Shown: piece by piece, positions 1,043 to 31,420 of the stretch
Layout of the letters: each line of letters starts with the position of its first letter
Numbering within the stretch: position 1 is the stretch's first letter
UHGV virus genome: UHGV-0122175
Direction: 5' to 3' (one strand)
DNA: 35,613 nt
Source of the DNA: a virus
Translations under genes and position numbers: made by a program
Notes under the pieces: generated by a model
The model's database searches: none
The model's input: only the letters and a program-made list of their open reading frames with translations
Told to the model about the DNA's origin: nothing

Positions 1043-1111
1043 GATTAGCCCCTCTAACGGATAAATTAACTAAACACTCCTTGCGATATGTAATTCGCTC
1101 AATGTGTAGAG

Positions 1112-1453: not shown

Positions 1454-1556
1454 ACGATGAGTATCCTCTTTTTACTCTTCACCACAGGGTGAAGAAAACA
1501 AACCAAAACAAACCATCACAAGGCGCAACAAGCGCACCAACGCAAGAGGATAACAA
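1454..1556. promoter_or_regulatory. Divergent early/immunity switch region (Pe/Pc-like) with operator-like repeats
   Basis: 103-bp gap between divergent C and cox-like genes. Contains an inverted repeat CTTCACC-acag-GGTGAAG (1477..1494) and a tandem direct repeat AAAACAAACC x2 (1495..1514). An AGAGGA ribosome-binding site precedes the ATG at 1557. Confidence 0.45.
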
Positions 1557-1862
1557 ATGCGGGACTTCATTGCCGATAAAGAGTTATCTGACCACCAACC
1601 ACTTCAGGAAAGTGACGCACTCAGCGGATCCATTGATGCCGCCAACGACGACGAACACGAAGAAAACAAGAAAAAGCGTTCCTACAAAAAAGGAGCGACT
1701 TTACGGCTGGATGGTCCGATCGCCGGGCTTTGCTCTCTGGAAAAAGGCGCGGCATATATTGGGCTAACAAAATCTGCACTGCGCGTAGCCATTCATCGCG
1801 GTCAAATGCCGGGACACAAGACGCGCACAAACCCGGAAGATGAAAACTCAGACGGAGTATAG
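1557..1862 (+). CDS. Cox/excisionase-like HTH protein ending at an in-frame amber codon
   Basis: ATG with good Shine-Dalgarno sequence. Acidic N-terminal region, then an HTH (GAAYIGLTKSALRVAIHRGQMPG) resembling the Cox/Apl family. The frame stops at TAG 1860..1862 but stays open in the same frame to 2078 (WFNAKEWDKLADELPEHEPPEWHNW...). Confidence 0.5.
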   Translation: MRDFIADKELSDHQPLQESDALSGSIDAANDDEHEENKKKRSYKKGATLRLDGPIAGLCSLEKGAAYIGLTKSALRVAIHRGQMPGHKTRTNPEDENSDGV

Positions 1863-2082
1863 TGGTTTAACGCCAAAGAGTGGGACAAGTTGGCTGATGA
1901 GCTACCAGAGCACGAGCCCCCAGAATGGCACAACTGGAAAAGTTACTGGACGTATGACCGCCAGAAAAGGAAGTTCTCTCCAGCTAATAAAGAAGACTGC
2001 CAGACCATTAACGGTAAGCGAGTTTATACAGGCAGAAGCTCAAAACTGAACCAACTCAGAAACAACAGAGGCAACTAATCGT

Positions 2083-2505
2083 ATGAAAACAAACACGTCA
2101 GATTTCACAATAACTATTTCAAAAAATGACCAAGCATTAATTGATAACCTGAAATACCTTGCGGAAAAACATAATAACGGACGAATTGCAATTAATTTAC
2201 GACACATCACAGGAGTAACAATTGTAACCAGTTACTGGCATCTATATCTAATCGCTAAATCAGTACTGGAAAACAAAGATTCTGTTGTCAATGGAAGAGA
2301 TGTAGATACTCTTCCTGCACAAATCAAACCGATAGCCTATCAATTGCGTAATCGTTTTAAAAATGAAGGTGGGATTATATTTGACTTTCCCGCAGCTGTA
2401 GCCGTGAGCTTCTCTCGGGAGGATATACTTCACTCATTTCGTTTTGCTCTATCAGGTGACGAGACATTATGGCAGCTAGAAGATGCCGGGAGCAGCCCGG
2501 CATAA
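2083..2505 (+). CDS. Hypothetical protein (AT-rich accessory gene)
   Basis: 140-aa ORF in a markedly AT-rich stretch, unlike the phage backbone. A long ORF in AT-rich DNA is unlikely by chance. No family recognised. Confidence 0.55.
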   Translation: MKTNTSDFTITISKNDQALIDNLKYLAEKHNNGRIAINLRHITGVTIVTSYWHLYLIAKSVLENKDSVVNGRDVDTLPAQIKPIAYQLRNRFKNEGGIIFDFPAAVAVSFSREDILHSFRFALSGDETLWQLEDAGSSPA

Positions 2506-3740: not shown

Positions 3741-3850
3741 GTATATTTATGTCATGGATTGTTCTGATTATTTCGGTGGCCTGCGCAATCGGGATTATGC
3801 GAATTATTCATTCAGTGAAAAAGATTGAACGCTTTTTCACTGGCGAATAA
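3737..3850 (+). CDS. Small hydrophobic membrane peptide (37 aa)
   Basis: ATGA start/stop overlap with the upstream gene suggests translational coupling. GGGGAA lies 7 nt upstream. Sequence MSIFMSWIVLIISVACAIGIMRIIHSVKKIERFFTGE has one predicted TM helix. It is below the ORF-track size cut-off. Confidence 0.45.
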   Translation: MSIFMSWIVLIISVACAIGIMRIIHSVKKIERFFTGE

Positions 3851-3943
3851 CAGAGCAAATAAAACACCAGATTAAATAAGAAAACGTGAAAACCATCCGA
3901 ATTAGCGGAGGCATTCACACACGTAAATAATGGAGATACAAAA

Positions 3944-4354
3944 ATGAACGCAAAAGAAAAAGGCATTGTAACTGCGCTAAAAAATATATCGAAGACCGCA
4001 AACAAAGCCATTCAAGATGCAACAAATGCAGGAATGATTGGGCCTGCCACCACAGCCATGATGATAGCAAGAGTAACCGCCGAAGCAGCCGAAATTATCG
4101 AAAAACAGGATGCTGAACTAACGGTTCCCAGAACACAACCAGTCACCGGACTGGATTTGTCTAACACCGGACGCCTTATTTACACAATTGGCTCGGAGCC
4201 ACAGCAATACACCATTATCGCCGGATTACAGGATAAATACTTGATCACTCCTCACCCCATAAGGGAATCAGAAATTCTGACAAATCTCCGCCTGATAGAG
4301 CGCTCTCAAGTCGCATTCATTGATGGCGCGCAACGTGCCGTATTTAACGCATAG
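3944..4354 (+). CDS. Hypothetical early-region protein
   Basis: 136-aa ORF with GGAGA ribosome-binding site. Confidence 0.6.
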   Translation: MNAKEKGIVTALKNISKTANKAIQDATNAGMIGPATTAMMIARVTAEAAEIIEKQDAELTVPRTQPVTGLDLSNTGRLIYTIGSEPQQYTIIAGLQDKYLITPHPIRESEILTNLRLIERSQVAFIDGAQRAVFNA

Positions 4355-4377
4355 GGCTATTGGGCAAAGAGAGCGTA

Positions 4378-9015: not shown

Positions 9016-9975
9016 ATGAAAATTTGTATCGATGACGGCTCCACCAACATCAAGCTGGCATGGACTGAGAACGGCGAACGCCGCAACGCCATCAGCCCAA
9101 ACAGCTTCAAGTCGGAATGGTCTGCGCCGTTCGGTGGCACGCAGCCCGCGAACTACATGCTTGATGGCGTGCGCTATGGTTTTGATCCGGTCAGCGATCG
9201 CTTTGTCCAGACGACCGACACGCAATACCAGTACAGCGATGTGAATGTCATTGCCATTCATCACGCGCTGGTCAAATCAGGCATCACACCACAGGAAGTG
9301 GATGTGGTTGTCACCCTGCCACTGAGCGAATATTTCGACACAAACGCACAGCCGGACATGGCCAACATCAACCGCAAAAAAGCGAACGTTATGCGCCCGG
9401 TGGAGTACCAGAACGGCGAAGCATTCACTATCCGTAACGTGCGGGTTATGCCTGAATCCATTCCGGCTGGCTTTAAGGCACTGGCTGACATGAGTCCGTT
9501 TGAATCCCTGCTGATTGTGGATTTGGGCGGAACCACGCTGGATGTGGCAAAGGTTCAGGGGCAACTGGCAGGTATCAGCCAGGTGTTTTGCGATCCACAC
9601 GTAGGCGTTTCTCTGATGGCCGATGCCGTACTGTCGGTGATGGCCACTAACGGTATGCGCACCAGTCACCACATCGCCAATACCATTATCGAACATCGCC
9701 ATGATGAAGCCTGGTTGCGCCAGCACATCCACAATGACGCGCATTACGCCAGCCTGATGGCGGTTATTCGTGAAAAGGAAGAAACACTGAAACAACGAGT
9801 GATCCGCGCGCTGGCGGGGTTTTCGGGTTACGGGCGGGTGATGGTTGTCGGTGGCGGGGCGGAGATTGTGGCACCCGCTATCCGCGAAGCCTGCGGAGTT
9901 AATGCGACTTTCATCGCGGACGGGGTGCCACAGTTTGCTCTGGTTAATGGGCTGTACGCAATGGACAAGGAGTAA
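9016..9975 (+). CDS. parM: Actin-like segregation ATPase, ParM/StbA family
   Basis: 319 aa. N-terminus MKICIDDGSTNIKLAW closely matches the plasmid R1 ParM N-terminus as I recall it (MLVFIDDGSTNIKLQW). Also has the actin-fold phosphate motif IVDLGGTTLD and C-terminal VMVVGGGAE. Strong AAGGAA ribosome-binding site. Confidence 0.8.
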   Translation: MKICIDDGSTNIKLAWTENGERRNAISPNSFKSEWSAPFGGTQPANYMLDGVRYGFDPVSDRFVQTTDTQYQYSDVNVIAIHHALVKSGITPQEVDVVVTLPLSEYFDTNAQPDMANINRKKANVMRPVEYQNGEAFTIRNVRVMPESIPAGFKALADMSPFESLLIVDLGGTTLDVAKVQGQLAGISQVFCDPHVGVSLMADAVLSVMATNGMRTSHHIANTIIEHRHDEAWLRQHIHNDAHYASLMAVIREKEETLKQRVIRALAGFSGYGRVMVVGGGAEIVAPAIREACGVNATFIADGVPQFALVNGLYAMDKE

Positions 9976-9979
9976 ACCA

Positions 9980-10294
9980 ATGACGACTCCAACCAGACGG
10001 ATAAGTTTCTATCTGAAGCCAGCAGCCGTCAAGAGTGAACGAGAAGCGTGTAATTATCTCGACAGCCTGCCAGCCTCCGAACGCAGCCGCGCGCAACGCG
10101 CGGCATTTCTGGCTGGACTGGCGCTTATTAAAAGCGATCCCGCCTTTGCTTACTGGCTGGCTGAATGGCAGGAAGAGGAAGCAATACCACCAAGAAATAA
10201 CATCCGAAACAAGCATACTGGCACATCTGCAACAGAAAACAGTCACAGTAAGAGCCAGTTAAAAAGGAACATTCAGGAGTTTTTCCCAGAATAA
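9980..10294 (+). CDS. parR: ParR-like centromere-binding adaptor
   Basis: 105 aa from ATG 9980, with AAGGAG upstream, directly after parM. The segment YLDSLPASERSRAQRAAFLAGLAL resembles R1 ParR (LDSIPQGERSRLNRAALTAGLAL, from memory). Confidence 0.65.
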   Translation: MTTPTRRISFYLKPAAVKSEREACNYLDSLPASERSRAQRAAFLAGLALIKSDPAFAYWLAEWQEEEAIPPRNNIRNKHTGTSATENSHSKSQLKRNIQEFFPE

Positions 10295-10300
10295 CCTACA

Positions 10301-10325
10301 AACACCCTTCACGGGTGTTTTTTCA
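10301..10325 (+). terminator. Intrinsic terminator after the parMR-like operon
   Basis: AACACCC-ttcac-GGGTGTT stem followed by TTTTTT. Confidence 0.6.
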
Positions 10326-10339
10326 TGTTTACCCTAATA

Positions 10340-10381
10340 ATCGATCTGTTAAACAGATAGATATTGATTTATCTATCGATT
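10340..10381. promoter_or_regulatory. Operator-like cluster of palindromes upstream of the orphan genes
   Basis: ATCTGTT-A-AACAGAT and ATAGATA-n6-TATCTAT inverted repeats, bracketed by ATCGAT. A TTGACA -35-like hexamer follows at 10398..10403. Confidence 0.3.
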
Positions 10382-10470
10382 AAAACGATCAATACCCTTG
10401 ACAGTTGTATGGGATTTTGTAGGATCGATCACGATATGACCACTTTGTTTGTGTGTCATGCATAGGAAAA

Positions 10471-10498
10471 CGCCCCAATAGCGGTAACTATTGGGGCG
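10471..10498. other. Perfect 11-bp stem-loop
   Basis: CGCCCCAATAG-cggtaa-CTATTGGGGCG. On the minus strand it is followed by TTTTCC, which looks like a terminator. On the plus strand it would sit in the 5' UTR of the 10604 gene. Confidence 0.35.
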
Positions 10499-10603
10499 CC
10501 AAAGAAATCGAGGTGTCATCTACCTCTTGAGCTCGCCGGAATCGTATTTTCTGCGTGTGCCCATGTAAAGGTGAACACCTCATTTTATTGAGGTAAATCA
10601 AAT

Positions 10604-10882
10604 ATGGGTATAAAGATTTGTAAAAACTCCCACCGATACAACCCCCAATACTCACACCTTCCCGATAACCAGGGACAGACAGGCCGCCACCGCTGCGCTG
10701 CCTGCGCATACGAGCTTGGTGTACTTCACGCAATGATCGGTATTCCTAAAGCTAAAGATGATTCCTTCCTGGCAAATATTCCATATAGCCAGGCTGGCAC
10801 AGTCAGACATAAAGACGCCTTTGAGGCATACATGCTTGGGTACGACTATGCAATGAGCAGCGCACTGCTCAAAGCTGCATAA
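10604..10882 (+). CDS. Hypothetical protein (orphan gene 1 in the A-Q hotspot)
   Basis: 92 aa, GAGGT ribosome-binding site, lower GC than the backbone. Contains a Cys/His cluster (CKNSH...HRCAAC). No family recognised. Confidence 0.5.
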   Translation: MGIKICKNSHRYNPQYSHLPDNQGQTGRHRCAACAYELGVLHAMIGIPKAKDDSFLANIPYSQAGTVRHKDAFEAYMLGYDYAMSSALLKAA

Positions 10883-10948
10883 CGATTTCTGCTTTTTCAC
10901 CACCTCAACAATAGTTGGAGAGGTGGTTCTTCTGAAAAGGATAATCAA

Positions 10949-11236
10949 ATGACCGATATTAAAAGAAGCGATTTATTTTATGACGATTACAGTTGGACTG
11001 CTTTGCCAGGAGATGATCCCACGAAAACCGCTGCTGACCGCCATCGGTTTAGCCGCAAAGAGGGTTATGAAGTACTAAATATGCTTAATTCCTTTAAGGC
11101 ATACTCCCTGAAAGAGAAACTCATTGTCGAATGGATGATTCACGAACACTTACCATCAGGTATTCAGGGAAGGGAAAATGTTAAAGACTGGATTAAACAA
11201 AACTTCCTCAAATTCAAGTTAATTTATCCACGCTGA
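10949..11236 (+). CDS. Hypothetical protein (orphan gene 2 in the A-Q hotspot)
   Basis: 95 aa, AAAGGA ribosome-binding site, AT-rich. Separated from gene 1 by an 8-bp stem hairpin (10899..10927). No family recognised. Confidence 0.5.
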   Translation: MTDIKRSDLFYDDYSWTALPGDDPTKTAADRHRFSRKEGYEVLNMLNSFKAYSLKEKLIVEWMIHEHLPSGIQGRENVKDWIKQNFLKFKLIYPR

Positions 11237-11532
11237 CTGAATATCAGAGAATGAAACCCTGAACGGGCGCACAAACGAAACGAGCGTGCCATGCCCGACG
11301 CACATACAAAGGCGGAGATGCACTCTCCGCCTCATAGTGGTTAACGCATTTAGAAAACATCAAATTTGTCAAACAATCTTTCATATTAACCCCTCCAGAT
11401 TCAAACACACTCTGGGATTGTTGTTAGCTAGTCACTGGGATTTTGCGTTTATAGTTTCACCTCGCCCAATCCACTGAAATTTTTAGTCAACTCAAGCTAA
11501 CGCGCGTGTTAAATATATGCTCATTTTCAAAC

Positions 11533-11560
11533 TGCACAATAGTGCACAAATTTGCACAAT
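11533..11560. repeat. Three phased direct repeats of TGCACAA
   Basis: Copies at 11533, 11543 and 11554, about one helical turn apart, in the non-coding region beside the portal gene where cos is expected. Confidence 0.5.
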
Positions 11561-11934
11561 TTTTTTGAACGACTTTTTGCCCTTCCGGCCCGCATGGCGG
11601 CTGGATCCGTCAGGGATCCGTGCGTGCACAAAAAAACGCGCTTTTTCTGCGCGCAGGTGACGGGGGAACAGCCCGCGTTTCAGGGGGTAAATAGCATTCC
11701 CTGAACGATGTCGCAGAGATACAACAGAATGGCTGTCTTTCTCACGCTGAGCGTGAAAAAGACGTGAGGGCTTTTGATTTGATGGGGTGGCAGATAAGGC
11801 CGTCAAAATCGCACTGAGGCGGCGAGAACATGCAGTCAGCGCGATGGGATTGCGTAAGAGCCTGACCGCCGATGATGGCAATAAGCTGGAAGGCGTCGTG
11901 AAATTATCTGATTGATACAGGAGCTGGAGAGTCG

Positions 11935-19612: not shown

Positions 19613-19763
19613 TACTCCCACATGGGGAAATCTCGGTATATGGGGCGACCGCCTTCTGGATGCACTGGAAACCTGTAACGCGGATAAACGGGCCATTGAA
19701 TTACTGGAACAGCGCAGGCTGCAACGACTGAACAACGAGGATAACAACCATGCTGAAAACTGA
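19443..19763 (+). CDS. lysC: o-spanin lipoprotein (Rz1/LysC-like), overlapping the i-spanin in another frame
   Basis: Lipobox LLTGC after a short signal sequence and a Pro-rich mature region. The start is probably the internal Met at 19473. Confidence 0.6.
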   Translation: MNSYATILQKMNAPTLCLTLVLLTGCAGTQNAPLPAPSVRLIPQTLTIPVTPPPFPDTPTWGNLGIWGDRLLDALETCNADKRAIELLEQRRLQRLNNEDNNHAEN

Positions 19764-20217
19764 TTCCCTGCGTGAAGCCATGACCCGTTCATGCCGATGG
19801 TGTCAGGCTAACCCGGAAAAATTCACCATTTTCGTGGAGAGCGGCAACATTGAAACGACCGGAGAAACGCCCTCGTTTGTTTACCGCTATCAGATGGTGA
19901 TGTTTGTCATGGATTACGCCGGAGAGCTGGACGACCTCACGCTGCCGCTGCTGGCGTGGTTATCCGAAAATCAGCCACAGTTGTTGCTCAATCCGGAGCG
20001 TAATCAGGACATCAAATTTTCCGCCGTTATCAATGACGATGACAGCGCCGATCTCCTGTTTACGCTCCCCCTGCGGGAACGCGTTCGCATCACGCGCAGC
20101 AGTCAGGGCACACCGCAGGCAGAACACCTGCCGGAGCCAAAACCCCGCCTGCCATCTTCCGAAGGCGACTGGTCGCATGTATTCCAGGATGTGACGTGGG
20201 GTGAAAGCGATGGATAA
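19750..20217 (+). CDS. R: Tail completion protein (P2 R-like)
   Basis: 155 aa, the same length as P2 R, in conserved position. Confidence 0.8.
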   Translation: MLKTDSLREAMTRSCRWCQANPEKFTIFVESGNIETTGETPSFVYRYQMVMFVMDYAGELDDLTLPLLAWLSENQPQLLLNPERNQDIKFSAVINDDDSADLLFTLPLRERVRITRSSQGTPQAEHLPEPKPRLPSSEGDWSHVFQDVTWGESDG

Positions 20218-20845
20218 GGCATTCACCCGCGTGGATGAAACCTTTGAGGCCATCCGCGACAGCCTGAATCAGCAGGCCATCAATAACATCGCCAGAAAGC
20301 TGGCACAGGATTTACGTCGCGCCCAGCAGGCACGTATCCGGTCACAGAAAGCGCCGGACGGGACCGCATGGACACCACGCAAACGCCGTGTAACCCGGAT
20401 ACAGGAACGCATTCGCTTTATCTGGAATAACGAAGCACGCACGCTGAAAAACTGGCATCACGACACGGGGAAATACGGGCGAACCATTACCGGGTGGGAT
20501 GAGGATAAAAACAATATCCGCACGTTTTACCGGGATGACATCGACCGTTTTCTGGAAATACGCACCCGGCGCATCAACCAGGACAGCACAAAGCGCGTCC
20601 CCATGTTCGTAAAACTGCGCACCGCCCGCTACCTGAAAGCCCGTGCAGATGCTTCCGGTGTGACGGTGGGTTACAGCGGCGTGGCCGCACGTATTGCCCG
20701 CGTTCATCAGTTCGGTGAGCGCGATCAGGTTGCGCCGGGCATTTTCACCGATTACCCGGTACGTGAGCTGTTGGGCATCAGTCAGGCAGATGAACGCCTG
20801 ATTTATAACACGGTGCTGGGCCGGATTGCGGAGGCTGTACGGTGA
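20210..20845 (+). CDS. S: Tail completion / virion morphogenesis protein (P2 S-like)
   Basis: ATG at 20210 overlapping the R stop. Position conserved. Longer than P2 S. Confidence 0.75.
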   Translation: MDKAFTRVDETFEAIRDSLNQQAINNIARKLAQDLRRAQQARIRSQKAPDGTAWTPRKRRVTRIQERIRFIWNNEARTLKNWHHDTGKYGRTITGWDEDKNNIRTFYRDDIDRFLEIRTRRINQDSTKRVPMFVKLRTARYLKARADASGVTVGYSGVAARIARVHQFGERDQVAPGIFTDYPVRELLGISQADERLIYNTVLGRIAEAVR

Positions 20846-21423
20846 GCGCAGAACTCATGCGACTGCTGAGCAATATCATCCGCACCGGGATCATCTCTGA
20901 AGTTGATGAGAAGTCCTGGCGCGTGCGCATTCGCAGCGGCGAACTGGAAACAGGCTGGCTGCGCTGGAACACCACGCGCGCGGGAGCCTTCAATGTGTGG
21001 CTGCCGCCATCACCAGGCGAACAGGTGGTAATTGCCTGCATTGGCGGCAACCCGGAAACCGCCATGATAATTGGCAGCCTGTGGAGTGATGCCAGTCCGG
21101 CCCCCGGCAAAAGCCTGAAAGAAATCGTGATCAGCGCGCCGGACGGCGCGGTGTTCCGCTACGACGCGGACGCAGGCGCACTGAGCGCCAGCGGCATGAA
21201 AACGGCCACTTTACAGGCATCCGTCAGCGTGAAACTGGACACGCCCGTCGTGGAATGCACAAACCTTCTGAGAACGGCGACGCTTGACGTCACAAAAGGA
21301 GGAAAGATGAGCGGCAATATCACGCACAGCGGCGGCAACTTCACCTCAAACGGCATTACCGTGCATACGCATAAACACGGTGGCGTGAAAGGCGGCAGCG
21401 ATTCGACAGGAGGCCCGCAGTGA
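20842..21423 (+). CDS. V: Baseplate spike/assembly protein (P2 V-like)
   Basis: 193 aa. NIIRTGII near the N-terminus and HTHKHGG near the C-terminus match P2 gpV as I recall it. Confidence 0.85.
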   Translation: MSAELMRLLSNIIRTGIISEVDEKSWRVRIRSGELETGWLRWNTTRAGAFNVWLPPSPGEQVVIACIGGNPETAMIIGSLWSDASPAPGKSLKEIVISAPDGAVFRYDADAGALSASGMKTATLQASVSVKLDTPVVECTNLLRTATLDVTKGGKMSGNITHSGGNFTSNGITVHTHKHGGVKGGSDSTGGPQ

Positions 21424-21770
21424 CAACCCGCTACACAGGAATGAACCCGGACGGGACGGGAAACCTGAACGATATGGAGCACCTGAAACAGTCAGTCAGG
21501 GATATCCTGACCACCCCGCTGGCAAGCCGGGTTATGCGACGGGAATATGGCAGCCTTGTGCCTGATTTGATTGACGAACCCATGAATAACACCACGCGTC
21601 TGCAATGCATGAGTGCTGCCGTGATTGCGCTGACACGATGGGAACCCCGCATTGCCCTGGATGCCATCGACGTTGTCTGGAAAGCGGGAGGCCGCGCCGG
21701 GGTGACGCTGTCGGGCACTGTCATGCAGACCATGCAGAATGTTGAATTAACCATCACGCTGAGGGAGTAA
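21420..21770 (+). CDS. W: Baseplate wedge protein (P2 W-like, gp25 family)
   Basis: 116 aa, size and position match P2 W. Confidence 0.85.
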   Translation: MTTRYTGMNPDGTGNLNDMEHLKQSVRDILTTPLASRVMRREYGSLVPDLIDEPMNNTTRLQCMSAAVIALTRWEPRIALDAIDVVWKAGGRAGVTLSGTVMQTMQNVELTITLRE

Positions 21771-21772
21771 TC

Positions 21773-22669
21773 ATGCCCGCCGTTGACCTTTCACAGTTAC
21801 CGGACCCCGCCATCATCGCGGAGCCTGACTTTGAGGCAATTCTGGCTGACACAAAGGCCATGATGATTGCGGCTTATCCCGCCGAACAGCGTGAAGCCGT
21901 TTCCGCCGCGCTGGAGCTGGAATCGGAACCCCTTAACGTTATCGCTCAAACCATGTCGTTTCGTGAAATGCTGTTACGCCAGCGGGTTAACGAGGGGGCA
22001 CGCGCCTGCATGTTAAGCCACAGCGCCGGGACAGACCTGGACAACCTCGCGGGCAATATGAACACAAAGCGCCTGGTTATCACTCCGGCAACGGATACCA
22101 CCGACGCGGTGATGGAGAGCGACACCTCGCTGAGACTGCGGGCGCAGCGGGCGTACGACGGCCTGAGTGTTGCTGGCCCGTCAGGTGCATACGAGTATTT
22201 TGCCCGCAGCGCCAGCGGTCTGGTGCGTGATGCGCGGGCTATCAGTCCGTCTCCGGCAAATGTGACGGTTTCCATCCTGTCCACTGAAGGCGACGGCACG
22301 GCAACGGAGGCGTTGCTTAATACCGTTCGCGCCGTTCTGAATGCAGAGGATACCCGCCCGGTGGCCGACCGCCTGACCGTACAGAGCGCCAGCATCGTGA
22401 CATGGCGGCTGAATGCAAAACTGTACTTTTACCCCGGTCCGGAATCCGAACCTATTCTGGCCGCGGCAGAATCGTCATTCAGGAAGTGGCTGGCTGAACA
22501 GGGGCTTATCGGTCAGGACGTGGCGTTGTCCGCCATTGCTGCCGCACTTCATGTACACGGCGTGCAACGCGTGGAGATAATCGAACCCACACAGAATATG
22601 GCCATCAGTGACATACAGGCGGCGCGCTGTGAGTCATTCACCATCAGCGAAGGTGGGCGTAATGAGTAA
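21773..22669 (+). CDS. J: Baseplate protein (P2 J-like)
   Basis: 298 aa, position after W. Confidence 0.85.
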   Translation: MPAVDLSQLPDPAIIAEPDFEAILADTKAMMIAAYPAEQREAVSAALELESEPLNVIAQTMSFREMLLRQRVNEGARACMLSHSAGTDLDNLAGNMNTKRLVITPATDTTDAVMESDTSLRLRAQRAYDGLSVAGPSGAYEYFARSASGLVRDARAISPSPANVTVSILSTEGDGTATEALLNTVRAVLNAEDTRPVADRLTVQSASIVTWRLNAKLYFYPGPESEPILAAAESSFRKWLAEQGLIGQDVALSAIAAALHVHGVQRVEIIEPTQNMAISDIQAARCESFTISEGGRNE

Positions 22670-23192
22670 TTCACTGTTACCGCCATCAGCCAGCAATTTC
22701 ATGCGTTATGCCGAAGCTGTCGGAACGCGCATTACAGACATCCCGGTAGACCTCAACACACTGTGGTCGCCGGATACCTGCCCGGTGCATCTGCTGCCTT
22801 ATCTCGCCTGGGCATTTTCCGTTGACCGCTGGGATCGCAACTGGCCGGAAGAGACAAAGCGACAGGTTATTCGTGATGCATGGCTGATACACCGACACAA
22901 AGGGACCATCAGCGCACTGCGCAGGGCCATTGAACCACTGGGATACCTCATTCGCGTGTCTGAGTGGTGGGAGTTCGGAGGAAAACCGGGAACATTTACC
23001 GTTGAAGTCGGCACACTGGACAGTGGTGTGACGGAGGAAATGTATCTGGAAATGGAGCGGTTGATTACTGATGCCCGTCCGGTCAGCCGCCACATGACAG
23101 GGCTGAATATCATTCAGGAAATTCCGGGGGATATTTTCGCAGCGGCGGCAACTTATGACGGTGAAGTTATTACCATTTATCCAGGCGATTAA
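22662..23192 (+). CDS. I: Baseplate protein (P2 I-like)
   Basis: ATG at 22662 gives 176 aa, the length of P2 I. Overlaps the J stop. Confidence 0.8.
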   Translation: MSNSLLPPSASNFMRYAEAVGTRITDIPVDLNTLWSPDTCPVHLLPYLAWAFSVDRWDRNWPEETKRQVIRDAWLIHRHKGTISALRRAIEPLGYLIRVSEWWEFGGKPGTFTVEVGTLDSGVTEEMYLEMERLITDARPVSRHMTGLNIIQEIPGDIFAAAATYDGEVITIYPGD

Positions 23193-23194
23193 GT

Positions 23195-25336
23195 ATGAGT
23201 ACCACAACACGAAAATTTAAAACCGTTATCACCGATACGGGTGCAAAAAAATTAGCTCAGGCAGCCGCGCCAGATGGTAAGCCTGTCCGCCTGACTCATA
23301 TGGCCGTGGGCGACGGTGGCGGCACGTTGCCCACACCAGACAGTAAGCAGACCCGTCTGGTGCATGAGGTGTGGCGACACACTGTTAATCGCGTCATCCT
23401 GGACGCAACACATCAGAACCGCATTATTGCGGAGCTGGTTATTCCTCCTGAAACGGGCGGATTCTGGATCCGGGAAATTGGTGTATTTGATGAGCACGGC
23501 GATTTAATCGCGGTGGGCAATACTGCCGAAAGTTACAAACCAACCGTTGCCGAAGGGTCCGGACGTGCACAAACATTTCGCACCATTCTGACCGTATCCA
23601 GCACTGCCACCGTGGCGCTTACCGTGGATAACACCATGGTGATGGCCACAGTGGATTACGTGGATGACAAACTGAAAGAGCATGAACAGTCACGACGTCA
23701 CCCGGATGCCTCGCTGACCGCAAAAGGCTTTGTTCAACTCAGTAGCGCCACTAACAGCGATTCTGAAACGCTGGCTGCAACGCCGAAAGCGGTTAAGGCC
23801 GCGTATGACCTGGCTAACGGAAAATATACCGCTCAGGACGCCACGACGGCACGAAAAGGGATAGTCCAGCTCAGCAGTGCAACCAACAGCACGTCTGAAA
23901 CGCTGGCAGCGACACCAAAAGCTGTTAAGGCGGTAATGGATGAAACGAACAAGAAAGCGCCCTTAAACAGTCCTGCGCTGACCGGAACACCAACAACACC
24001 AACTGCGCCAAAAGGTACTAACAATACTCAGATCGCAAGCACGGCTTATGTTATGGCTGCGATCGCTGCCCTCGTGGACTCGTCGCCTGACGCACTGAAT
24101 ACGCTGAACGAGCTGGCTGCGGCGTTGGGCAACGACCCGAATTTTGCGACCACCATGACTAACGCGCTTGCGGGTAAGCAACCGAAAGATGCCACCCTGA
24201 CGGCGCTGGCCGGGCTTGCTACTGCGGCAGACAAGTTTCCGTATTTTACGGGGAATGATGTCGCCAGCCTGGCAACCCTGACAAAAGTCGGGCGGGATAT
24301 TCTTGCGAAATCGACCGTTGCTGCCGTTATCGAATACCTCGGTTTACAGGAAACGGTAAACAGGGCTGGTAACGCCGTGCAAAAAAATGGCGATACTTTG
24401 TCCGGTGGGCTTACTTTTGAAAATGACTCAATCCTTGCCTGGATTCGAAATACTGACTGGGCGAAGATTGGATTTAAAAATGATGCCGATGGTGACACTG
24501 ATTCATACATGTGGTTTGAGACAGGCGACAACGGCAATGAATATTTCAAATGGAGAAGCAAACAAAGTACCACAACAAAAGACCTGATGAATCTTAAATG
24601 GGATGCTTTGTATGTTCTTGTCAATGCCATTGTAAATGGCGAAGTCATATCAAAATCAGCAAACGGCCTACGTATTGCTTATGGTAATTACGGATTCTTT
24701 ATTCGTAATGATGGTTCAAATACATACTTCATGTTGACAAACTCCGGTGACAACATGGGGACTTATAACGGATTAAGGCCATTATGGATTAATAACGCTA
24801 CTGGCGCTGTTTCGATGGGGCGTGGCCTTAATGTTTCAGGGGAGACACTTTCAGACCGTTTTGCTATTAACAGCAGTAATGGTATGTGGATTCAGATGCG
24901 CGATAACAACGCTATCTTTGGGAAAAATATAGTTAACACTGATAGCGCTCAGGCGTTACTTCGCCAGAATCACGCCGACCGAAAGTTCATGATAGGTGGA
25001 CTGGGGAACAAGCAATTTGGCATCTACATGATTAATAACTCAAGGACAGCCAATGGCACCGATGGTCAGGCGTACATGGACAATAACGGTAACTGGCTTT
25101 GCGGTGCGCAAATTATTCCCGGAAATTATGGCAATTTTGACTCACGCTATGTGAGAGATGTCCGACTTGGCACACGTGTTGTTCAATTGATGGCGCGTGG
25201 AGGGCGTTATGAAATAGCCGGACACGCACTTACCGGATTAAGGATTATTGGTGAAGTTGATGGCGATGATGAAGCTATCTTCAGGCCGATACAAAAATAC
25301 ATCAATGGCATATGGTATAACGTCGCACAGGTGTAA
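23195..25336 (+). CDS. H: Tail fibre protein H (constant N-terminal part plus variable C-terminal part Hv)
   Basis: 713 aa. The N-terminus matches the P2/Mu fibre constant domain. Duplicated STNS.SETLAATPKAVKA motifs. A gix-like crossover site lies inside the gene at 24327..24352. Confidence 0.85.
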   Translation: MSTTTRKFKTVITDTGAKKLAQAAAPDGKPVRLTHMAVGDGGGTLPTPDSKQTRLVHEVWRHTVNRVILDATHQNRIIAELVIPPETGGFWIREIGVFDEHGDLIAVGNTAESYKPTVAEGSGRAQTFRTILTVSSTATVALTVDNTMVMATVDYVDDKLKEHEQSRRHPDASLTAKGFVQLSSATNSDSETLAATPKAVKAAYDLANGKYTAQDATTARKGIVQLSSATNSTSETLAATPKAVKAVMDETNKKAPLNSPALTGTPTTPTAPKGTNNTQIASTAYVMAAIAALVDSSPDALNTLNELAAALGNDPNFATTMTNALAGKQPKDATLTALAGLATAADKFPYFTGNDVASLATLTKVGRDILAKSTVAAVIEYLGLQETVNRAGNAVQKNGDTLSGGLTFENDSILAWIRNTDWAKIGFKNDADGDTDSYMWFETGDNGNEYFKWRSKQSTTTKDLMNLKWDALYVLVNAIVNGEVISKSANGLRIAYGNYGFFIRNDGSNTYFMLTNSGDNMGTYNGLRPLWINNATGAVSMGRGLNVSGETLSDRFAINSSNGMWIQMRDNNAIFGKNIVNTDSAQALLRQNHADRKFMIGGLGNKQFGIYMINNSRTANGTDGQAYMDNNGNWLCGAQIIPGNYGNFDSRYVRDVRLGTRVVQLMARGGRYEIAGHALTGLRIIGEVDGDDEAIFRPIQKYINGIWYNVAQV
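24327..24352. repeat. gix/hix-like invertase crossover site (left, inside H)
   Basis: TTATCGAATACCTCGGTTTACAGGAA. Its extended 34-bp form (24327..24360) is an inverted repeat of 27369..27402 with two mismatches. Confidence 0.75.
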
Positions 25337-25339
25337 ATT

Positions 25340-25867
25340 ATGCAGCACTAAAAAAATATCAGGTCAGGAAACCCAAAGACAAAAGAGCAATACCAATTAA
25401 CAAAGAATTTTGACGTAATCTGGTTGTGGTCTGAAGACGGAAAAAACTGGTATGAGGAAGTGAAAAACTTTCAACCAGACACAATAAAGATTGTTTACGA
25501 TGAAAATAATATTATTGTCGCCATCACCAAAGATGCATCCACGCTTAACCCTGAAGGTTTTAGCGTCGTTGAGGTTCCCGATATTACAGCCAACCGCCGC
25601 GCTGATGATTCAGGAAAGTGGATGTTTAAGGATGGAGCTGTAGTTAAACGGATTTATACGGCAGACGAACAGCAACAACAAGCTGAATCACAAAAGGCCG
25701 CATTGCTTTCCGAAGCTGAATCAGTCATCCAGCCGCTGGAACGCGCTGTCAGGCTGAATATGGCAACAGACGAGGAACGCACACGACTGGAAGCATGGGA
25801 ACGCTACAGTGTTCTGGTCAGCCGTGTGGATACGGCAAATCCTGAATGGCCACAAAAGCCTGAATAA
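25340..25867 (+). CDS. G: Tail fibre assembly chaperone G (expressed orientation), with in-frame TAA at codon 4
   Basis: ATG 25340, CAG, CAC, then TAA (25349..25351). The frame reopens and matches G' residue for residue ([36 protein letters not shown]). The ORF track restarts at TTG 25424. Confidence 0.6.
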
Positions 25868-25895
25868 AAATTAAGGCCCGATAGCGGGCCTTGTC

Positions 25896-26429
25896 TCATT
25901 CAGGTTGTTCGGGAAACGTTACTGGCAGGCTGGAAGTGTCTGTAGATTCGACTTTCTGCGCAAAGAGCATCCACTCTGTTAATTTTTGTTTATTCTCGTC
26001 GGAAATGATGCCCAGCCGTAGCTGTGAGTCCCATAGCTGGGTTTTATCCCTGACGAGCTGTAGCAGGCTTTGCTTTTCATTTTCCGCCAGCTGCCTCTGC
26101 TCTTCCTCGGTATAAGTTCGCTTTACCACTACGCCATCTTTGAACATCCACTTACCCGAAATGTCAGCACGGCGATTTGCTGTAATATCAGGTAATTCAA
26201 CGACGCTTGCGCCTTCCGGATTAATTGCTGAAACATCCTTTTCAATACAAATAATAACGCCGTTATGGTCATAGACCATTTTCAAAGTGTCTGGCTGGAA
26301 ATTCTTTTGTTCCTCATACCAGTTTTTCCCATCCTCTGTATAAAGCCATTTGATGTTAAATTGTTTCGTTAGCTGGTATTGCTCTTTTGTTTTAGGGTTG
26401 CCAGCAGTAATATTTTTTAAGTGCATCAT
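25896..26429 (-). CDS. Alternative tail fibre assembly chaperone G'
   Basis: 177 aa, intact. N-terminus [40 protein letters not shown] parallels G. Confidence 0.8.
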   Translation of the reverse strand: MMHLKNITAGNPKTKEQYQLTKQFNIKWLYTEDGKNWYEEQKNFQPDTLKMVYDHNGVIICIEKDVSAINPEGASVVELPDITANRRADISGKWMFKDGVVVKRTYTEEEQRQLAENEKQSLLQLVRDKTQLWDSQLRLGIISDENKQKLTEWMLFAQKVESTDTSSLPVTFPEQPE

Positions 26430-26431
26430 AA

Positions 26432-27376
26432 TTAAATACTCCCCGCGTTATACCACGTTCCATTAATGCAATACTGAATTGGCCTTGCCTGAGTTGTATC
26501 AATTAATTCATCACGGTTTCCGTTAACTGAACCCGTAACGACATAACCTGACCTGTCAGACCAGCCGGGGCCATTCCATGTCTGAACAGATGACAGACCG
26601 CCAAGGCGAATACCTGTAATAAACCTTGAGTTACATTCTGCCTGCGTGTATGCACCAACATCTCCCGCAGAGGGTTTGCGGGTCGTGGTGTAAAACTCTG
26701 ACCAGTCAGCCTCAAATCCATAACCATCACGCGCTGAACGATAAAAAATACCGCCGTTCCTGTAATTCACGCGGAACTGTACAGCAGGGCAGCTCCCCGT
26801 ATTCATATTGAAGTGGAGGATTAATGTCGATGTGCCACCAATGTTTGCGTTATAGACCCCGCTATTCCAGTTCCAGCCAACAGCTTTATCATTTCCGACA
26901 GTGCTTCCTGTTTGTCCTAAAGCAAATGCAGGTTGTTGATTTTTCGTGTTGTAGTCTCGTCGCCAGCCAGGAGCATAAGCATCACCATGATTAATATAAG
27001 TGAATTGAGCGTTAGTAATTCCGCCACCGCTGGACGTGCTCGGCGTGGTAACGCGTATGGTCATTGCGCTGCGAGTGCCAATAACTTCCACCACAGCACC
27101 TGCAAGACAAATATTTCCGCAACCTGTATCTGTAATGACCTTATTATTTGCATAAGCCCATGAGCCTTTGCACATCCAGTAAGGATGGTTAAATGCTCCC
27201 TGACTCTCCAGCCACGAAATAAATTGCGCGGTTGTCCAGACCTGACTATCGCCACCAATATTCAGCCATGCGCTATATGCGCGGCAGGCCCCAATATTTT
27301 TGGTGAAGGTATCTTTTCCCGGAATATCTGCGCCGTTCTGGTTTTTCTGTAATGCGCCAGAAGCCTGATTTACCGT
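26432..27376 (-). CDS. Alternative tail-fibre C-terminal segment H'v (no promoter or start of its own in this orientation)
   Basis: The minus-strand frame is open from the right gix site down to 26432. It begins LGLQETVNQASGALQKN..., parallel to H residues EYLGLQETVNRAGNAVQKN. Confidence 0.7.
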   Translation of the reverse strand, partial: TVNQASGALQKNQNGADIPGKDTFTKNIGACRAYSAWLNIGGDSQVWTTAQFISWLESQGAFNHPYWMCKGSWAYANNKVITDTGCGNICLAGAVVEVIGTRSAMTIRVTTPSTSSGGGITNAQFTYINHGDAYAPGWRRDYNTKNQQPAFALGQTGSTVGNDKAVGWNWNSGVYNANIGGTSTLILHFNMNTGSCPAVQFRVNYRNGGIFYRSARDGYGFEADWSEFYTTTRKPSAGDVGAYTQAECNSRFITGIRLGGLSSVQTWNGPGWSDRSGYVVTGSVNGNRDELIDTTQARPIQYCINGTWYNAGSI

Positions 27377-27402
27377 TTCCTGTAAACCGAGGTTTTAGAT
27401 AA
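27377..27402. repeat. gix/hix-like invertase crossover site (right)
   Basis: TTCCTGTAAACCGAGGTTTTAGATAA. Near-identical to the Mu gixL sequence as I recall it (TTCCTGTAAACCGAGGTTTTGGATAA). Confidence 0.75.
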
Positions 27403-27456
27403 TGGCCGTTTCCGGCCTGCATGGCATGATTTGCGCTTTTGGACGGGAGATTCAGC

Positions 27457-28047
27457 GTGCTGATTGGCTATGTAAGGGTATCAACAAATGACCAGAATAC
27501 AGACCTGCAACGAAACGCTCTTGTTTGTGCCGGATGTGAACAAATATTTGAAGATAAATTAAGCGGGACAAAGACAGACCGACCGGGATTAAAACGCGCT
27601 TTAAAGCGCCTTCAAAAAGGTGACACGCTGGTTGTCTGGAAACTGGATCGCCTCGGGCGAAGCATGAAACATCTGATTTCTCTCGTCGGGGAACTACGGG
27701 AGCGAGGGATTAATTTTCGCAGTCTGACCGATAGCATAGATACATCTTCTCCAATGGGGCGTTTTTTCTTCCACGTGATGGGTGCCCTGGCTGAAATGGA
27801 ACGTGAATTAATTGTTGAACGTACACTGGCCGGACTGGCGGCAGCGCGCGCACGGGGGCGCACAGGCGGACGTCGACCGAAGCTGACAAAAGAACAGCAT
27901 GAGCAAATAGCAAGGCTGATTAAAAACGGTCACGACAGAAAACAACTGGCAATAATTTACAGCATTGGTATATCGACAATTTATCGTTACCACCCCGCAG
28001 GAGAATCAAGTGGAACAATTGAGAAGAGTAAACAAAATAACCGCTAA
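27457..28047 (+). CDS. Serine DNA invertase (Gin/Pin/Cin/Hin family)
   Basis: GTG start with GGGAGA ribosome-binding site. N-terminus LIGYVRVSTNDQNTDLQRNAL with the catalytic Ser, and a C-terminal HTH. Sits just outside the invertible segment. Confidence 0.9.
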   Translation: MLIGYVRVSTNDQNTDLQRNALVCAGCEQIFEDKLSGTKTDRPGLKRALKRLQKGDTLVVWKLDRLGRSMKHLISLVGELRERGINFRSLTDSIDTSSPMGRFFFHVMGALAEMERELIVERTLAGLAAARARGRTGGRRPKLTKEQHEQIARLIKNGHDRKQLAIIYSIGISTIYRYHPAGESSGTIEKSKQNNR

Positions 28048-28068
28048 TCTGGCCATTAGCGGTTTTTG
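28040..28068. terminator. Bidirectional intrinsic terminator between the convergent invertase and U genes
   Basis: ACCGCTAAT-ctggcc-ATTAGCGGT stem followed by TTTTT. The invertase stop codon lies inside the stem. Confidence 0.6.
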
Positions 28069-28075
28069 TGTTAAA

Positions 28076-28570
28076 TCAGAACAGCCCTTTAACGGAGCTG
28101 GCCGCGCTGTTAAGGGATGATGTGACCTTATCTTTGAAGCCGGACAGCATATCGCTGAACGATGAGGATTGCAGGCGCTCCCGCAAATCCTCATCACAGC
28201 GTTCAAGGGTCAGTGAAAATTCTATTTTTTTCGCCTTACCGTAGCGATCAAATTCAGAGCGGGTCGTATTCGTTCCGGTCAGGACATACATGCCGTAAAT
28301 CTGCCCGACACCATCAATCAGAGGCCAGGGGCGTCCTGTATATGCCTGCGTGGTCAGCAGCGACAGCGACACTTCGCCACCTGTAATTTCAGGATAAAGC
28401 ACACCGGAAAGCACGATGCGATCATCACCTGCACCGATATACTGCCAGCTTGCTGAACGGTTAACGCGTTCATTTTTCACATGCCGCCAGCTTTTGTTTT
28501 GCTGTAACTGCTGATGCGGCAGCGTGCGCAGCTCAAAAACAAACATGCCGTAGATCATCATCATGACCAT
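28076..28570 (-). CDS. U: Tail protein U-like
   Basis: 164 aa, close to P2 U in size, immediately downstream of the tape measure gene on the minus strand. Confidence 0.7.
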   Translation of the reverse strand: MVMMMIYGMFVFELRTLPHQQLQQNKSWRHVKNERVNRSASWQYIGAGDDRIVLSGVLYPEITGGEVSLSLLTTQAYTGRPWPLIDGVGQIYGMYVLTGTNTTRSEFDRYGKAKKIEFSLTLERCDEDLRERLQSSSFSDMLSGFKDKVTSSLNSAASSVKGLF

Positions 28571-28576
28571 GACTCC

Positions 28577-31420
28577 TCAATCTTTATCGTAAAAACTGCC
28601 ACGTCCGGCACGGGCGCGCCGTTCCATTTCTGCCCTGACCATTTCACCGACCAGTTTCGCCAGTTCGCGGGGATTCTGTGTAACGACGTTATGCAGATGA
28701 ACATGAATTTCACCGCCAAATCCTGAGGCAACAGGCTCCCGGTTACGGGAAGTTACAGGAACTGATGCCACTGGAGATCGTATGGCCTCCGCCACCGGGC
28801 GGGAGCTGGCCGCAACAACAGGGACCAGCGCCGGAGGCAGCGGAGCCGGGACCACGGGTGTGATATTAATTGCGGGGGCAGGCTTACTGACCTGCGCAAT
28901 CTTCCGCTCCTGCCACTCCCCACGAACAGCAAGTGCGCGGGGCAGGTTCTTAAAGACAATATCGCCGGGGCCAATGCGTTTTTTCGTCTCATCAACCAGC
29001 TTACCTGTGTTATCAGCAATTTTGCTGAGTCTGCGCAGCGTACCAGTATTGCTGTCTGTGAGCGGTTTATTGTCTTTGGGGTTATCACCTCCGGTGCCAT
29101 TGCCATTTTCTACAGGCTTCGGCGGATTGATTTTCGCCAGGTCCCCCTGAAGCAAGGCAACCTTGTCCTGAAGAATGGCCGCACGCTGTGCGTCTTCGAT
29201 TTTCTTTCTCGCCCTTTCCGCTTCATCCGGAAGAACACCGAGTTTTTCAAGTATCCACGCCAGCGTATCCAGCAACATTTTTGCAGGCGTCAGAACAAGC
29301 TGTAACGCGCCACCAAGAACGTTACCGAATATCTCGCCAGCACTGGTACATTTATCCAGCGTTTCCTTGCTGGACTCCATCGGTGACAGCAGCGATTTAA
29401 ACCAGTTAAACACCTGGCTGATCCCGCTTCCGATTGCGTCAAAAACAGGGCCAAACCGTTCAAAGGTTTCACGCAACGGGTTCAGCCTTTCCATAATCCC
29501 GTTGAACACCCCGGCATAAAACGCCTTAATGGGTTCCCAGTATTTCCAGATGAGAACCGCCGCAGCCACAAACGCAGCGGCAATCAATCCGACCGGACTG
29601 AACAGCGCCCCGATAGCGCCTCCCAGTAAAGAAACGGAACCCGTCACCATTCCCCATAGTGCTGGCAGGACCCTGACAGCATTCATTGATCCGGTCAGGA
29701 GAGAAAAACCAAGACGCAGTTTTGCCAGCGGGCCAGCAAGCACACCAATAGCCAGCGACAACGAGCCAACCGTTGCAGTCATTGCCAGCAACGCACCGCC
29801 TGCTATCAGTAGCTGGCGCGTCAGTGCCGGATGGGCCTGCGCCAGCGCCGTCACCCTTGATACCACCCGCGTGAGCCACTGCGTGACAGAACGCAGCGGA
29901 CCGTCAATCAGATCTGCAATGCGGATGCGCAACCCTTCCCATGCACTGCCGAGTGATTTCAGATCGCCGTCAAGGTTGTTGGCCATAACCTTTGCTGTGC
30001 GTTCAGCCTCACCGCGCGCGCCTTCAAGTTCTTTTCTCAGTTTGGGTAAGGAACCGTCACCCGCTGCATCAACGAGCGCCATAAACGATGTGAAAGCCTC
30101 TTCTCCGGCAATGTCCTTAAAGAACGATACCCGGTCAACTTCCCCGTATTTGCGGGTGGCTTTATAAAGGTCGGCCAGCACATCCTCCATCGGGCGCATT
30201 TTGCCGTTCGCGTCAGAGACTGCCACACCAAGCTCTTTCAGAGCTTCTGCCGCCGCCTTTGGCGGTGATGCCAGACGAGCCAGGCTGGCACGCATTGCCG
30301 TCCCGGCATCACTCCCTCTGATACCCATATTCGCCAGCACGCCCGCCATCGCTGCGGCCTGCTCCAGCGATATCCCCAGCTTGCCCGCCACCGGACCTGC
30401 ATATTTCATGGTTTCGCCCAGTGCGCGAAGGTCAGTGTTGGTACGGGTAAACGCTGCGGTGAGCGTGTCGCCAACCCGGTCCATCTGGTCAGCAGAAAGG
30501 CCGAACTGCGTCAGGATATTTGAGCCAATATCCGCCGTCTCGCCGAGATCCATGCCGCCAGCCGTTGCCATGCTCAGCACGCCCGGAAGCGCAGCCTGAA
30601 TGGCCTGCGGTGTGAAGCCAGCCATTGCAAGAAATGCCTGCCCACTGGCGGCATCGCCTGCGGTGAACTGCGTTTCAGAGCCAAGTTTTAACGCCTGCTC
30701 ACGCAGCGCCTTAAACTGCGGGCTGTTTTTGTCGATTCGCGTCAGTGCCTGAACGCGGGACATCTCTTTCCCGAACCCGATCGCAGGCTGCAAAAAACGC
30801 CCGGCAGCATAGCCGCCAGCCGCTGCCGCACCAATTGCCAGCGCACCACCTGTTTTCAGTTTTCCCGCTGTTTCCTGCGCGCGCGAATACCGCTCACGCG
30901 CCCGCGTTACACGCGCAAGCGCCTGCCGTTCGCGTTCAAGCTGGTTGTTGTACTGTTCGGTGCGTCTGATGGCCTGCTGGATGGTGTTATCGCTGCCTGT
31001 CAGGGAAATGCCGTGGCGTTTCAGCTCTCCGCCAAGCTCCCGCATTTTCTGAATTTCCCGTGTACGCGATTCATTCAGGCGTTCAAGCCGGGTGCTTAAC
31101 TGCTGCATCAGCTTTTGTTGTTTTTCGCTGAGCACTGTACCCGTGCGTTGTAACTGATTAAGGGCGTTAAGCTGGCGTCGTGCTTTCACGATGCCCGCAT
31201 CCGCTTTACTGACAGCGTCGCGGGCGCGCTCAAATGATCGCGCCTGACGCTCGAGATTTTTGATCGCCCCCTGCGTTCGCTGGATGGAGTCACCAAACTG
31301 CCCCATCAGGCGGCGGGCGTTTTCGGCAGGTCGGGTCAGCCTGTCAACGGCGCTGAAAGCGACCCGGATATCAAGAGTCTTCATTGTCTGCATTCCCGCT
31401 GCGAAGTGCCGCCCGCTCAC
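28577..31420 (-). CDS. T: Tail tape measure protein (P2 T-like)
   Basis: 947 aa with a coiled-coil N-terminal third and a Gly/Ala-rich hydrophobic core. Located after the E/E' chaperone pair. Confidence 0.85.
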   Translation of the reverse strand: MSGRHFAAGMQTMKTLDIRVAFSAVDRLTRPAENARRLMGQFGDSIQRTQGAIKNLERQARSFERARDAVSKADAGIVKARRQLNALNQLQRTGTVLSEKQQKLMQQLSTRLERLNESRTREIQKMRELGGELKRHGISLTGSDNTIQQAIRRTEQYNNQLERERQALARVTRARERYSRAQETAGKLKTGGALAIGAAAAGGYAAGRFLQPAIGFGKEMSRVQALTRIDKNSPQFKALREQALKLGSETQFTAGDAASGQAFLAMAGFTPQAIQAALPGVLSMATAGGMDLGETADIGSNILTQFGLSADQMDRVGDTLTAAFTRTNTDLRALGETMKYAGPVAGKLGISLEQAAAMAGVLANMGIRGSDAGTAMRASLARLASPPKAAAEALKELGVAVSDANGKMRPMEDVLADLYKATRKYGEVDRVSFFKDIAGEEAFTSFMALVDAAGDGSLPKLRKELEGARGEAERTAKVMANNLDGDLKSLGSAWEGLRIRIADLIDGPLRSVTQWLTRVVSRVTALAQAHPALTRQLLIAGGALLAMTATVGSLSLAIGVLAGPLAKLRLGFSLLTGSMNAVRVLPALWGMVTGSVSLLGGAIGALFSPVGLIAAAFVAAAVLIWKYWEPIKAFYAGVFNGIMERLNPLRETFERFGPVFDAIGSGISQVFNWFKSLLSPMESSKETLDKCTSAGEIFGNVLGGALQLVLTPAKMLLDTLAWILEKLGVLPDEAERARKKIEDAQRAAILQDKVALLQGDLAKINPPKPVENGNGTGGDNPKDNKPLTDSNTGTLRRLSKIADNTGKLVDETKKRIGPGDIVFKNLPRALAVRGEWQERKIAQVSKPAPAINITPVVPAPLPPALVPVVAASSRPVAEAIRSPVASVPVTSRNREPVASGFGGEIHVHLHNVVTQNPRELAKLVGEMVRAEMERRARAGRGSFYDKD

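Follow-up and report, generated by a model that had tools for sequence, protein, structure and literature searches.

The G locus and its invertible fibre cassette

We analysed a viral DNA stretch of 35,613 nucleotides (UHGV virus genome UHGV-0122175; hereafter referred to as the window) around the start of a gene named G. Direct reading of the sequence gives ATG-CAG-CAC-TAA at 25340–25351 (ATG at 25340–42, then CAG and CAC, and TAA at 25349–51); from 25331, the letters run GTG TAA ATT ATG CAG CAC TAA AAA AAT ATC AGG. Translation from ATG 25340 yields MQH*, and past the TAA the frame is open to the terminal stop at 25865–67. The elements of the gene are as follows.

25340–25867, plus strand: G, orthologue of Mu U and P1 U (tail fibre assembly chaperone, Caudo_TAP), judged a pseudogene of 3 sense codons, an ochre codon and 172 in-frame codons (translation, profile and homology matches)
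25349–25351, plus strand: ochre TAA at codon 4; mutated base 25350, ancestral T (reading, orthologue comparison and sister phage; reproduced in L247 and L248)
25329–25333, plus strand: Shine-Dalgarno (SD) sequence of G, AGGTG, placed 6 nt before the ATG and overlapping the final codons of the fibre gene H (anti-SD duplex of -3.8 kcal/mol at spacing 6)

The ATG of G lies 3 nt past the stop codon of H and is preceded by this SD of its own. H and G share one reading frame with TAA ATT alone between them (25331–25342), and the overlap of the SD with the last H codons suggests translational coupling of the two genes. The first-pass annotation had reported the ochre codon at the fourth position, the in-frame continuation beyond it and a TTA (Leu) at the matching codon of the paralogue G′; its coordinates and its description agreed with our reading and translation throughout. 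It had also called G "currently expressed". The orientation is indeed an expression-competent one, but the expression itself is better worded as "in expression-competent orientation".

G is part of an invertible cassette composed of the elements listed below.

23195–25336, plus strand: H, encoding the 713-aa tail fibre, whose constant N-terminal part is of P2/P88 type and is joined at the left crossover to a variable Mu-S/P1-S-type tip, Sv (ORF and Pfam)
24327–24360, no strand: left crossover site (gix/cix-type) inside H, TTATCGAATACCTCGGTTTACAGGAAACGGTAAA; core 24336–24354, found also at the Mu G-segment boundaries (inverted repeat)
25873–25892, no strand: GC-rich hairpin between the convergent G and G′, resembling an intrinsic terminator
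25896–26429, minus strand: G′, Mu U′ orthologue and chaperone of the silent cassette, intact at 177 aa (PF02413; 97.2% identical to Mu U′)
26432–27393, minus strand: silent variable fibre end H′v, equivalent to Mu S′v, open from the right crossover to its stop
27369–27402, no strand: right crossover site, inverted relative to the left one; core 27375–27393 (inverted repeat and site alignment)
27457–28047, plus strand: serine DNA invertase of the Gin/Cin/Pin family, 196 aa, GTG start, Ser9 (Pfam Resolvase and HTH_7)

The H protein matched the Pfam families Phage_tail_fib, Phage_fiber_2 and Gp34_trimer and shared 83% amino acid identity with the P88 fibre, with no stops. Its variable part was 98.8% identical to the Sv of P1-like and Mu-like elements and 87% identical to the Sv of Mu itself. 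The invertase matched Resolvase and HTH_7 with E values of 1.3e-50 and 5.4e-13, respectively, and was 97% identical to the P88 enzyme and 79% to Gin; its N-terminus, VLIGYVRVSTNDQ, is that of Gin, including Ser9 of the serine invertases (PMC3575834). Both crossover sites share the core ACCTCGGTTTACAGGAAACGGTAAA, as at the Mu boundaries. When we inverted the segment in silico, an in-frame 700-aa fibre followed by G′ was obtained, and this fibre was within 2 aa of the one actually encoded by a sister phage. That sister, 99.9% identical, carries the segment in the flipped state, and both orientations therefore occur in this lineage. The segment thus has the attributes of the Gin/Cin/Pin/Hin type: a serine recombinase, inverted sites with an identical core, an inversion that keeps the frame, and both orientations in nature. 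The earlier statement that the alternative orientation is intact was upheld, as the 177-aa G′ is complete, no stop interrupts the silent fibre end, the invertase is intact and the inversion is in frame.

Just outside the right crossover, the minus reading contains an in-frame stop (AII*NLGLQETVN... at 27394–27402), which is left behind on inversion and is harmless; because of it, ORF finders report the silent tip from an internal ATG alone (26432–27175). G and G′ had been described as parallel sequences. This parallel reflects homology and not chance, because the two are about 58% identical over 175 aa and 77.5% identical over the first 40 aa, as against 51.8% for the remainder.

Identity of G and of the phage that carries it

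To identify the product, we used G with TTA restored at codon 4 (hereafter referred to as repaired G). Repaired G matched the Pfam family PF02413 (Caudo_TAP) over residues 40–175 with an E value of 1.1e-37 and 129.6 bits, compared with a cut-off of 22.1, and aligned over its full length with Mu U (5YVQ chain B; E value of 1.1e-109), to which G is about 95% identical. Its sequence is that of phage P1 protein U, with 100% identity, and was found on 72 contigs. An AlphaFold model of full-length G (pLDDT 82) superposed on 5YVQ_B at a TM score of 0.78; it has a strand at residues 8–10 and a helix, alpha1, at residues 15–24, and its N-terminal domain superposed on the fibre-bound TfaMu chain. G thus combines a profile match to Caudo_TAP, orthology to a characterised member and a position directly downstream of a fibre gene, and it lacks the intact 175-aa frame owing to the TAA at codon 4. 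On these grounds, we judge that G is a pseudogene of the Caudo_TAP family and not a working member of it.

PMC8174754 and PMC10579305 report that TfaMu must be co-expressed to obtain the Mu fibre, and that it stays on the fibre tip and aids LPS binding. In the Tfa N-terminal domain, helices alpha1, alpha3 and alpha4 contribute to fibre binding, according to PMC9608196.

The cassette has the layout of the Mu G segment (S, U, U′, S′, gin): the same gene order, a constant fibre part outside the segment, two tips each with a convergent chaperone, inverted crossover sites of 34 bp with an identical core, and a serine invertase next to the segment. Nucleotide identity to Mu was about 94% over window positions 24327–27836 (94–95% for Mu and D108), a match that reaches about 380 bp into the invertase gene. 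The orientation in the window corresponds to the deposited Mu G(+), which expresses S and U (PMC4406740). It differs from Mu in that the segment resides in a P2-like (P88-type) phage, the fibre has a P2-type N-terminus, the invertase shares only 79% identity with Gin, and U has an ochre codon at position 4. The P1 C segment (S, U, U′, S′, cin) is similarly close, repaired G being P1 U; a P1-like plasmid carries the 98.8% identical tip and gave the closest nucleotide match to the G region (99.0%). In that case the backbone is another one, the invertase is 68% identical to the Cin-type enzyme of the plasmid, and the P1 gene is intact. The fibre cassette is therefore common to unrelated phage backbones, and the identity to P1 U, the tip values (98.8% for the Mu-like and P1-like tips, 87% for Mu) and the invertase values (79% and 68%) together point to the cassette having been exchanged horizontally as a unit and to a separate evolution of the invertase.

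By its gene content, the window is a complete temperate P88-like phage (Xuanwuvirus, Peduoviridae) residing in E. coli as a prophage. It spans from an integrase gene at the left end to a mokW-like gene at the right end. P88 and its relatives showed about 96% nucleotide identity over 74–99% of the two halves of the window, which places it in Xuanwuvirus, and they have the same cassette, followed by tail genes on the opposite strand. In a gene-by-gene comparison with P88, all of the head, tail, baseplate and lysis genes were of full length and without stops, G excepted; the P88 chaperone is an intact 175-aa protein. The other differences lie in the integrase/immunity region and in some of the early-region cargo: window positions 50–2505, 3850–4360 and 10290–11620 are not common with P88. 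The integrase and the repressor were 50% and 33% identical to those of P88, respectively. The P88 genes gp11, gp12 (a lipoprotein), gp19 and gp20 are absent and are replaced by ORFs without a Pfam match (3944–4354, 10604–10882 and 10949–11236). These divergent regions may be cargo or defence hotspots of the kind found in P2-like phages. At 9016–10294, a ParM gene (100% identical to that of P88) and a gene with a Plasmid_stab_B domain are present, so this integrase-bearing P2-like phage also has functions of plasmid partition. A stop in a 47-aa ORF resembling P88 gp21 (11624–11764) was considered as a second lesion and set aside; the stretch is GC-rich, looks intergenic and probably contains no genuine gene in P88 or in the window.

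Ancestral state of codon 4 and the restart options

To establish the ancestral state of codon 4, we surveyed the best 120 cluster representatives of 829 homologues. Among these, 101 were exactly 175 aa in length; each of these begins with Met, Leu occupies position 4 in 100 of them, and residues 1–40 are almost invariant throughout. The five orthologues inspected individually (from a P1-like plasmid, a Mu-like prophage, an IMG/VR contig, P88 and Mu) all carry Leu at codon 4 and, where annotated, begin at the same ATG as G and comprise 175 aa. Relatives that begin G at a downstream codon, which would have made the stop irrelevant, were thus not the rule among these best 120 representatives.

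At the DNA level, we scanned public viral and metagenomic contigs with a gapped pattern and kept the matches that passed a filter for downstream homology, since a looser pattern gave many chance matches. TTA AAA AAT was present at 121 of the 122 homologous sites among the matches listed. TAA at codon 4 was found at none of these 122 sites and in none of the 101 full-length representatives, and all 48 genome-contig loci hit by the gapped-pattern scan came from unrelated taxa. An exact 24-mer, with W at the mutated base, had no match in the species-representative genomes and one in an IMG/VR contig, of wild type. The exact 69-mer around the stop was absent from 5,426 complete E. coli genomes; the best seven matches differed by one base, which in the two that were aligned was the T/A of codon 4.

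The closest relative is a sister prophage.

Equivalent to window 21800–29333: L251 (Logan ERR1789779_11), 99.9% identical; segment inverted relative to the window, fibre of 700 aa, G intact at 175 aa

After re-inversion in silico, this prophage (Logan ERR1789779) differed from the window at 7 positions in 7,534 nt, and within G at 25350 only. This is the single T-to-A change that the first-pass annotation had proposed; it converts TT(A)6T into T(A)7T. The nearest P1-like allele differs from G by 5 synonymous changes plus the nonsense change. Since the sister G differs only at 25350 and the P1-like allele has only synonymous changes besides, the codon-4 change is derived, private to the lineage and very recent, and G has no sign of further decay. 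An old, decaying pseudogene was ruled out by the lack of other non-synonymous changes in G.

The stop could nevertheless be bypassed, by reinitiation at a downstream codon or by readthrough of the ochre codon, which would keep the orientation in the window infective. Early nonsense mutations in lacI are a classical setting for restarts, and termination after 3 codons would leave ribosomes near in-frame TTG and GTG codons. The available start codons are as follows.

25424–25426, plus strand: TTG, codon 29; the start picked by gene callers (147 aa); no SD, -0.9 kcal/mol
25460–25462, plus strand: GTG, codon 41; GAGGAA abuts the start, a spacing too short for normal initiation (SD scan)
25622–25624, plus strand: first in-frame ATG, codon 95; AGGA at usable spacing; C-terminal 81 aa only; the gene call in Logan SRR413694 starts here

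TTG 25424, which is annotated as the start in a JGI contig, had been put forward as the proviso under which a chaperone might still be made. Its anti-SD duplex energy is -0.9 kcal/mol, compared with -3.8 kcal/mol for the native ATG, and its product would be without the conserved strand and helix alpha1; the proviso is thus poorly supported. The Pfam model of Caudo_TAP spans residues 40–175 only, and in one natural homologue, P0119, of 166 aa, the N-terminus is shorter and unlike that of the others, in view of which the N-terminal segment may tolerate some change. Against this, residues 1–40 hardly vary across the 101 representatives and make up the stretch over which G and G′ agree best, and they form the strand and the alpha1 helix of the fibre-bound domain (PMC9608196). 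Given the reported role of alpha1 in fibre binding, the model and this conservation, the product initiated at TTG-29 is predicted to lose structure that is both conserved and functionally implicated. Programmed recoding at the codon was ruled out, as a stop occurred at 0 of the 122 sites among the matches listed and in 0 of the 101 full-length representatives; slippage on the (A)7 run, whether in translation (frameshifting) or in transcription, was likewise discarded as a bypass, since past the stop the reading continues in the ATG frame, which a single shift cannot restore. Taking the SD-less TTG-29 and the abutting GAGGAA of GTG-41 together with these points, we consider it improbable that bypass keeps the orientation infective.

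The 81-aa C-terminal fragment from Met95 (P0122) is labelled "tail fiber assembly protein" on 14 contigs, complete E. coli genomes included. Many shorter partial entries of the U type exist besides, so that truncated U-type genes are common in public annotation.

Authenticity, consequence and meaning of the TAA allele

We then considered whether the TAA is a sequencing or assembly artefact, that is, whether the true base is T and the TT(A)6 boundary was miscalled as T(A)7. The change borders an A-run, where some platforms tend to miscall bases, and the TAA allele was present in no complete E. coli genome. In other assemblies, too, this run is of aberrant length, through error or variation: L006 (positions 1078–1105; Logan ERR14686257_1345) reads CAC TTA AAA ATA, with A5 in place of A6 and hence a frameshift, and the N-termini of P0078 and P0105 (MVQRVTGVIYAAFKNI...) fit a loss of 1 nt in the A-run together with an upstream out-of-frame start. 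These lesions could be real variants or homopolymer sequencing errors. On the other side, a look-up of the exact 713-aa H protein, which was found in three sources, retrieved a Logan assembly of SRR413694 (51.6 kb) and a separate contig of JGI 3300055680 (171.5 kb). Both were 100% identical to window positions 19695–28836 (9,142 nt), the TAA included, which comes near to the raw-read confirmation proposed in the first-pass annotation; the TAA-bearing assemblies may represent one strain sequenced repeatedly. The other morphogenesis genes have no frameshifts or stops, so the assembly is not a noisy one. Because the SRR413694 assembly and the JGI contig reproduce the TAA, an assembly artefact is an unlikely source of it, to which we assign very little weight. 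The TAA allele is genuine.

These results support the notion that G carries a real, very recent and lineage-private null mutation of a P1-U/Mu-U-type chaperone, in a complete P88-like phage with an invertible cassette; we put the probability of this reading at roughly 0.78. Ribosomes would load at the good SD and ATG 25340, make Met-Gln-His and terminate, leaving essentially no full-length chaperone. Fibres of this type are expected to need Tfa to fold and trimerise, with Tfa staying on the fibre tip, and because of this need, particles made in the orientation of the window would lack functional fibres and fail to adsorb. A flip by the invertase would fuse H to the other tip and bring the intact G′ to expression, so that infective particles of the alternative host range would result. 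The orientation in the window thus probably gives non-infective particles and the flipped one normal particles, and on balance the phage would be infective from only one of its two orientations. In induced lysates of Mu, both orientations are present in roughly equal amounts (PMC4406740); by this measure, a sizeable share of the burst would be wasted. Two points count against so complete a loss: slight reinitiation after the 3-codon ORF is possible and a small dose of chaperone might suffice, and a co-resident P1-like or Mu-like prophage could provide an identical U in trans.

The second of these points can be developed into an explanation of its own, in which the lesion is real but masked, U from a co-resident P1-like plasmid or Mu-like prophage assembling the fibre in trans. 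Repaired G is exactly P1 U, the fibre tip is 98.8% identical to the tips of such elements, and U-type genes are widespread in E. coli, with matches in 1,418 of the 5,426 complete genomes. Masking would nevertheless need a second element in the same cell, with its late genes turned on concurrently and its own segment in the matching orientation, and no such element was seen in the window or in the retrieved contigs. We regard general masking as a slim prospect, on a par with an artefact.

A further proposal is that the A-tract at codons 4–6 of U-type genes (T TAA AAA AT) is repeatedly hit by lesions that silence one orientation's chaperone. If true, such a hotspot would supplement DNA inversion with another, mutational level of host-range control. 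The unbiased survey was not supportive, as 121 of the 122 sites among the matches listed were wild type and the sole exception, L006, had been reached via its truncated product; the proposal is hardly tenable. Least credible of all is an adaptive loss, in which selection, for instance against an unavailable or abortive host, knocked out one chaperone: the G(+) chaperone is the only damaged part, the rest including the switch being intact, but there is one allele in one lineage with no recurrence in the unbiased survey, a null in one orientation wastes rather than saves the particles made then, and a neutral or mildly deleterious recent prophage mutation is simpler.

The recent null allele of G can be set beside two known situations. 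Fibres of this kind are classically lost through loss of their chaperone, as with the U mutants of Mu and the TfaMu requirement; the Mu genes S and U were reportedly defined by amber mutants, in work said to be that of Grundy and Howe in 1984. Here, in contrast, the ochre allele arose naturally in a lineage of prophages rather than in the laboratory, and its phenotype is deduced from the DNA. Short U-type products are also already annotated among the truncated tail-fibre assembly genes of E. coli prophages, where decay is commonplace; the present case differs in that the lesion is a single clean point mutation and the phage is otherwise intact and probably works. Gene and system are both well known, the allele is a loss of function of an ordinary kind, and all parts of the cassette are known and annotated in relatives. 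Its general weight is small, Mu/P1-type cassettes, Tfa chaperones and loss-of-function alleles of prophages already being textbook matter. For prophage annotation, G should be marked as a pseudogene and not as a 147-aa or 81-aa "tail fiber assembly protein", and for host-range predictions of this phage the flipped orientation alone should count. Being one base away from an intact sister, the lineage offers a natural control for the need of a U-type chaperone in a P2-like background and for the dispensability of its N-terminal 28 residues.
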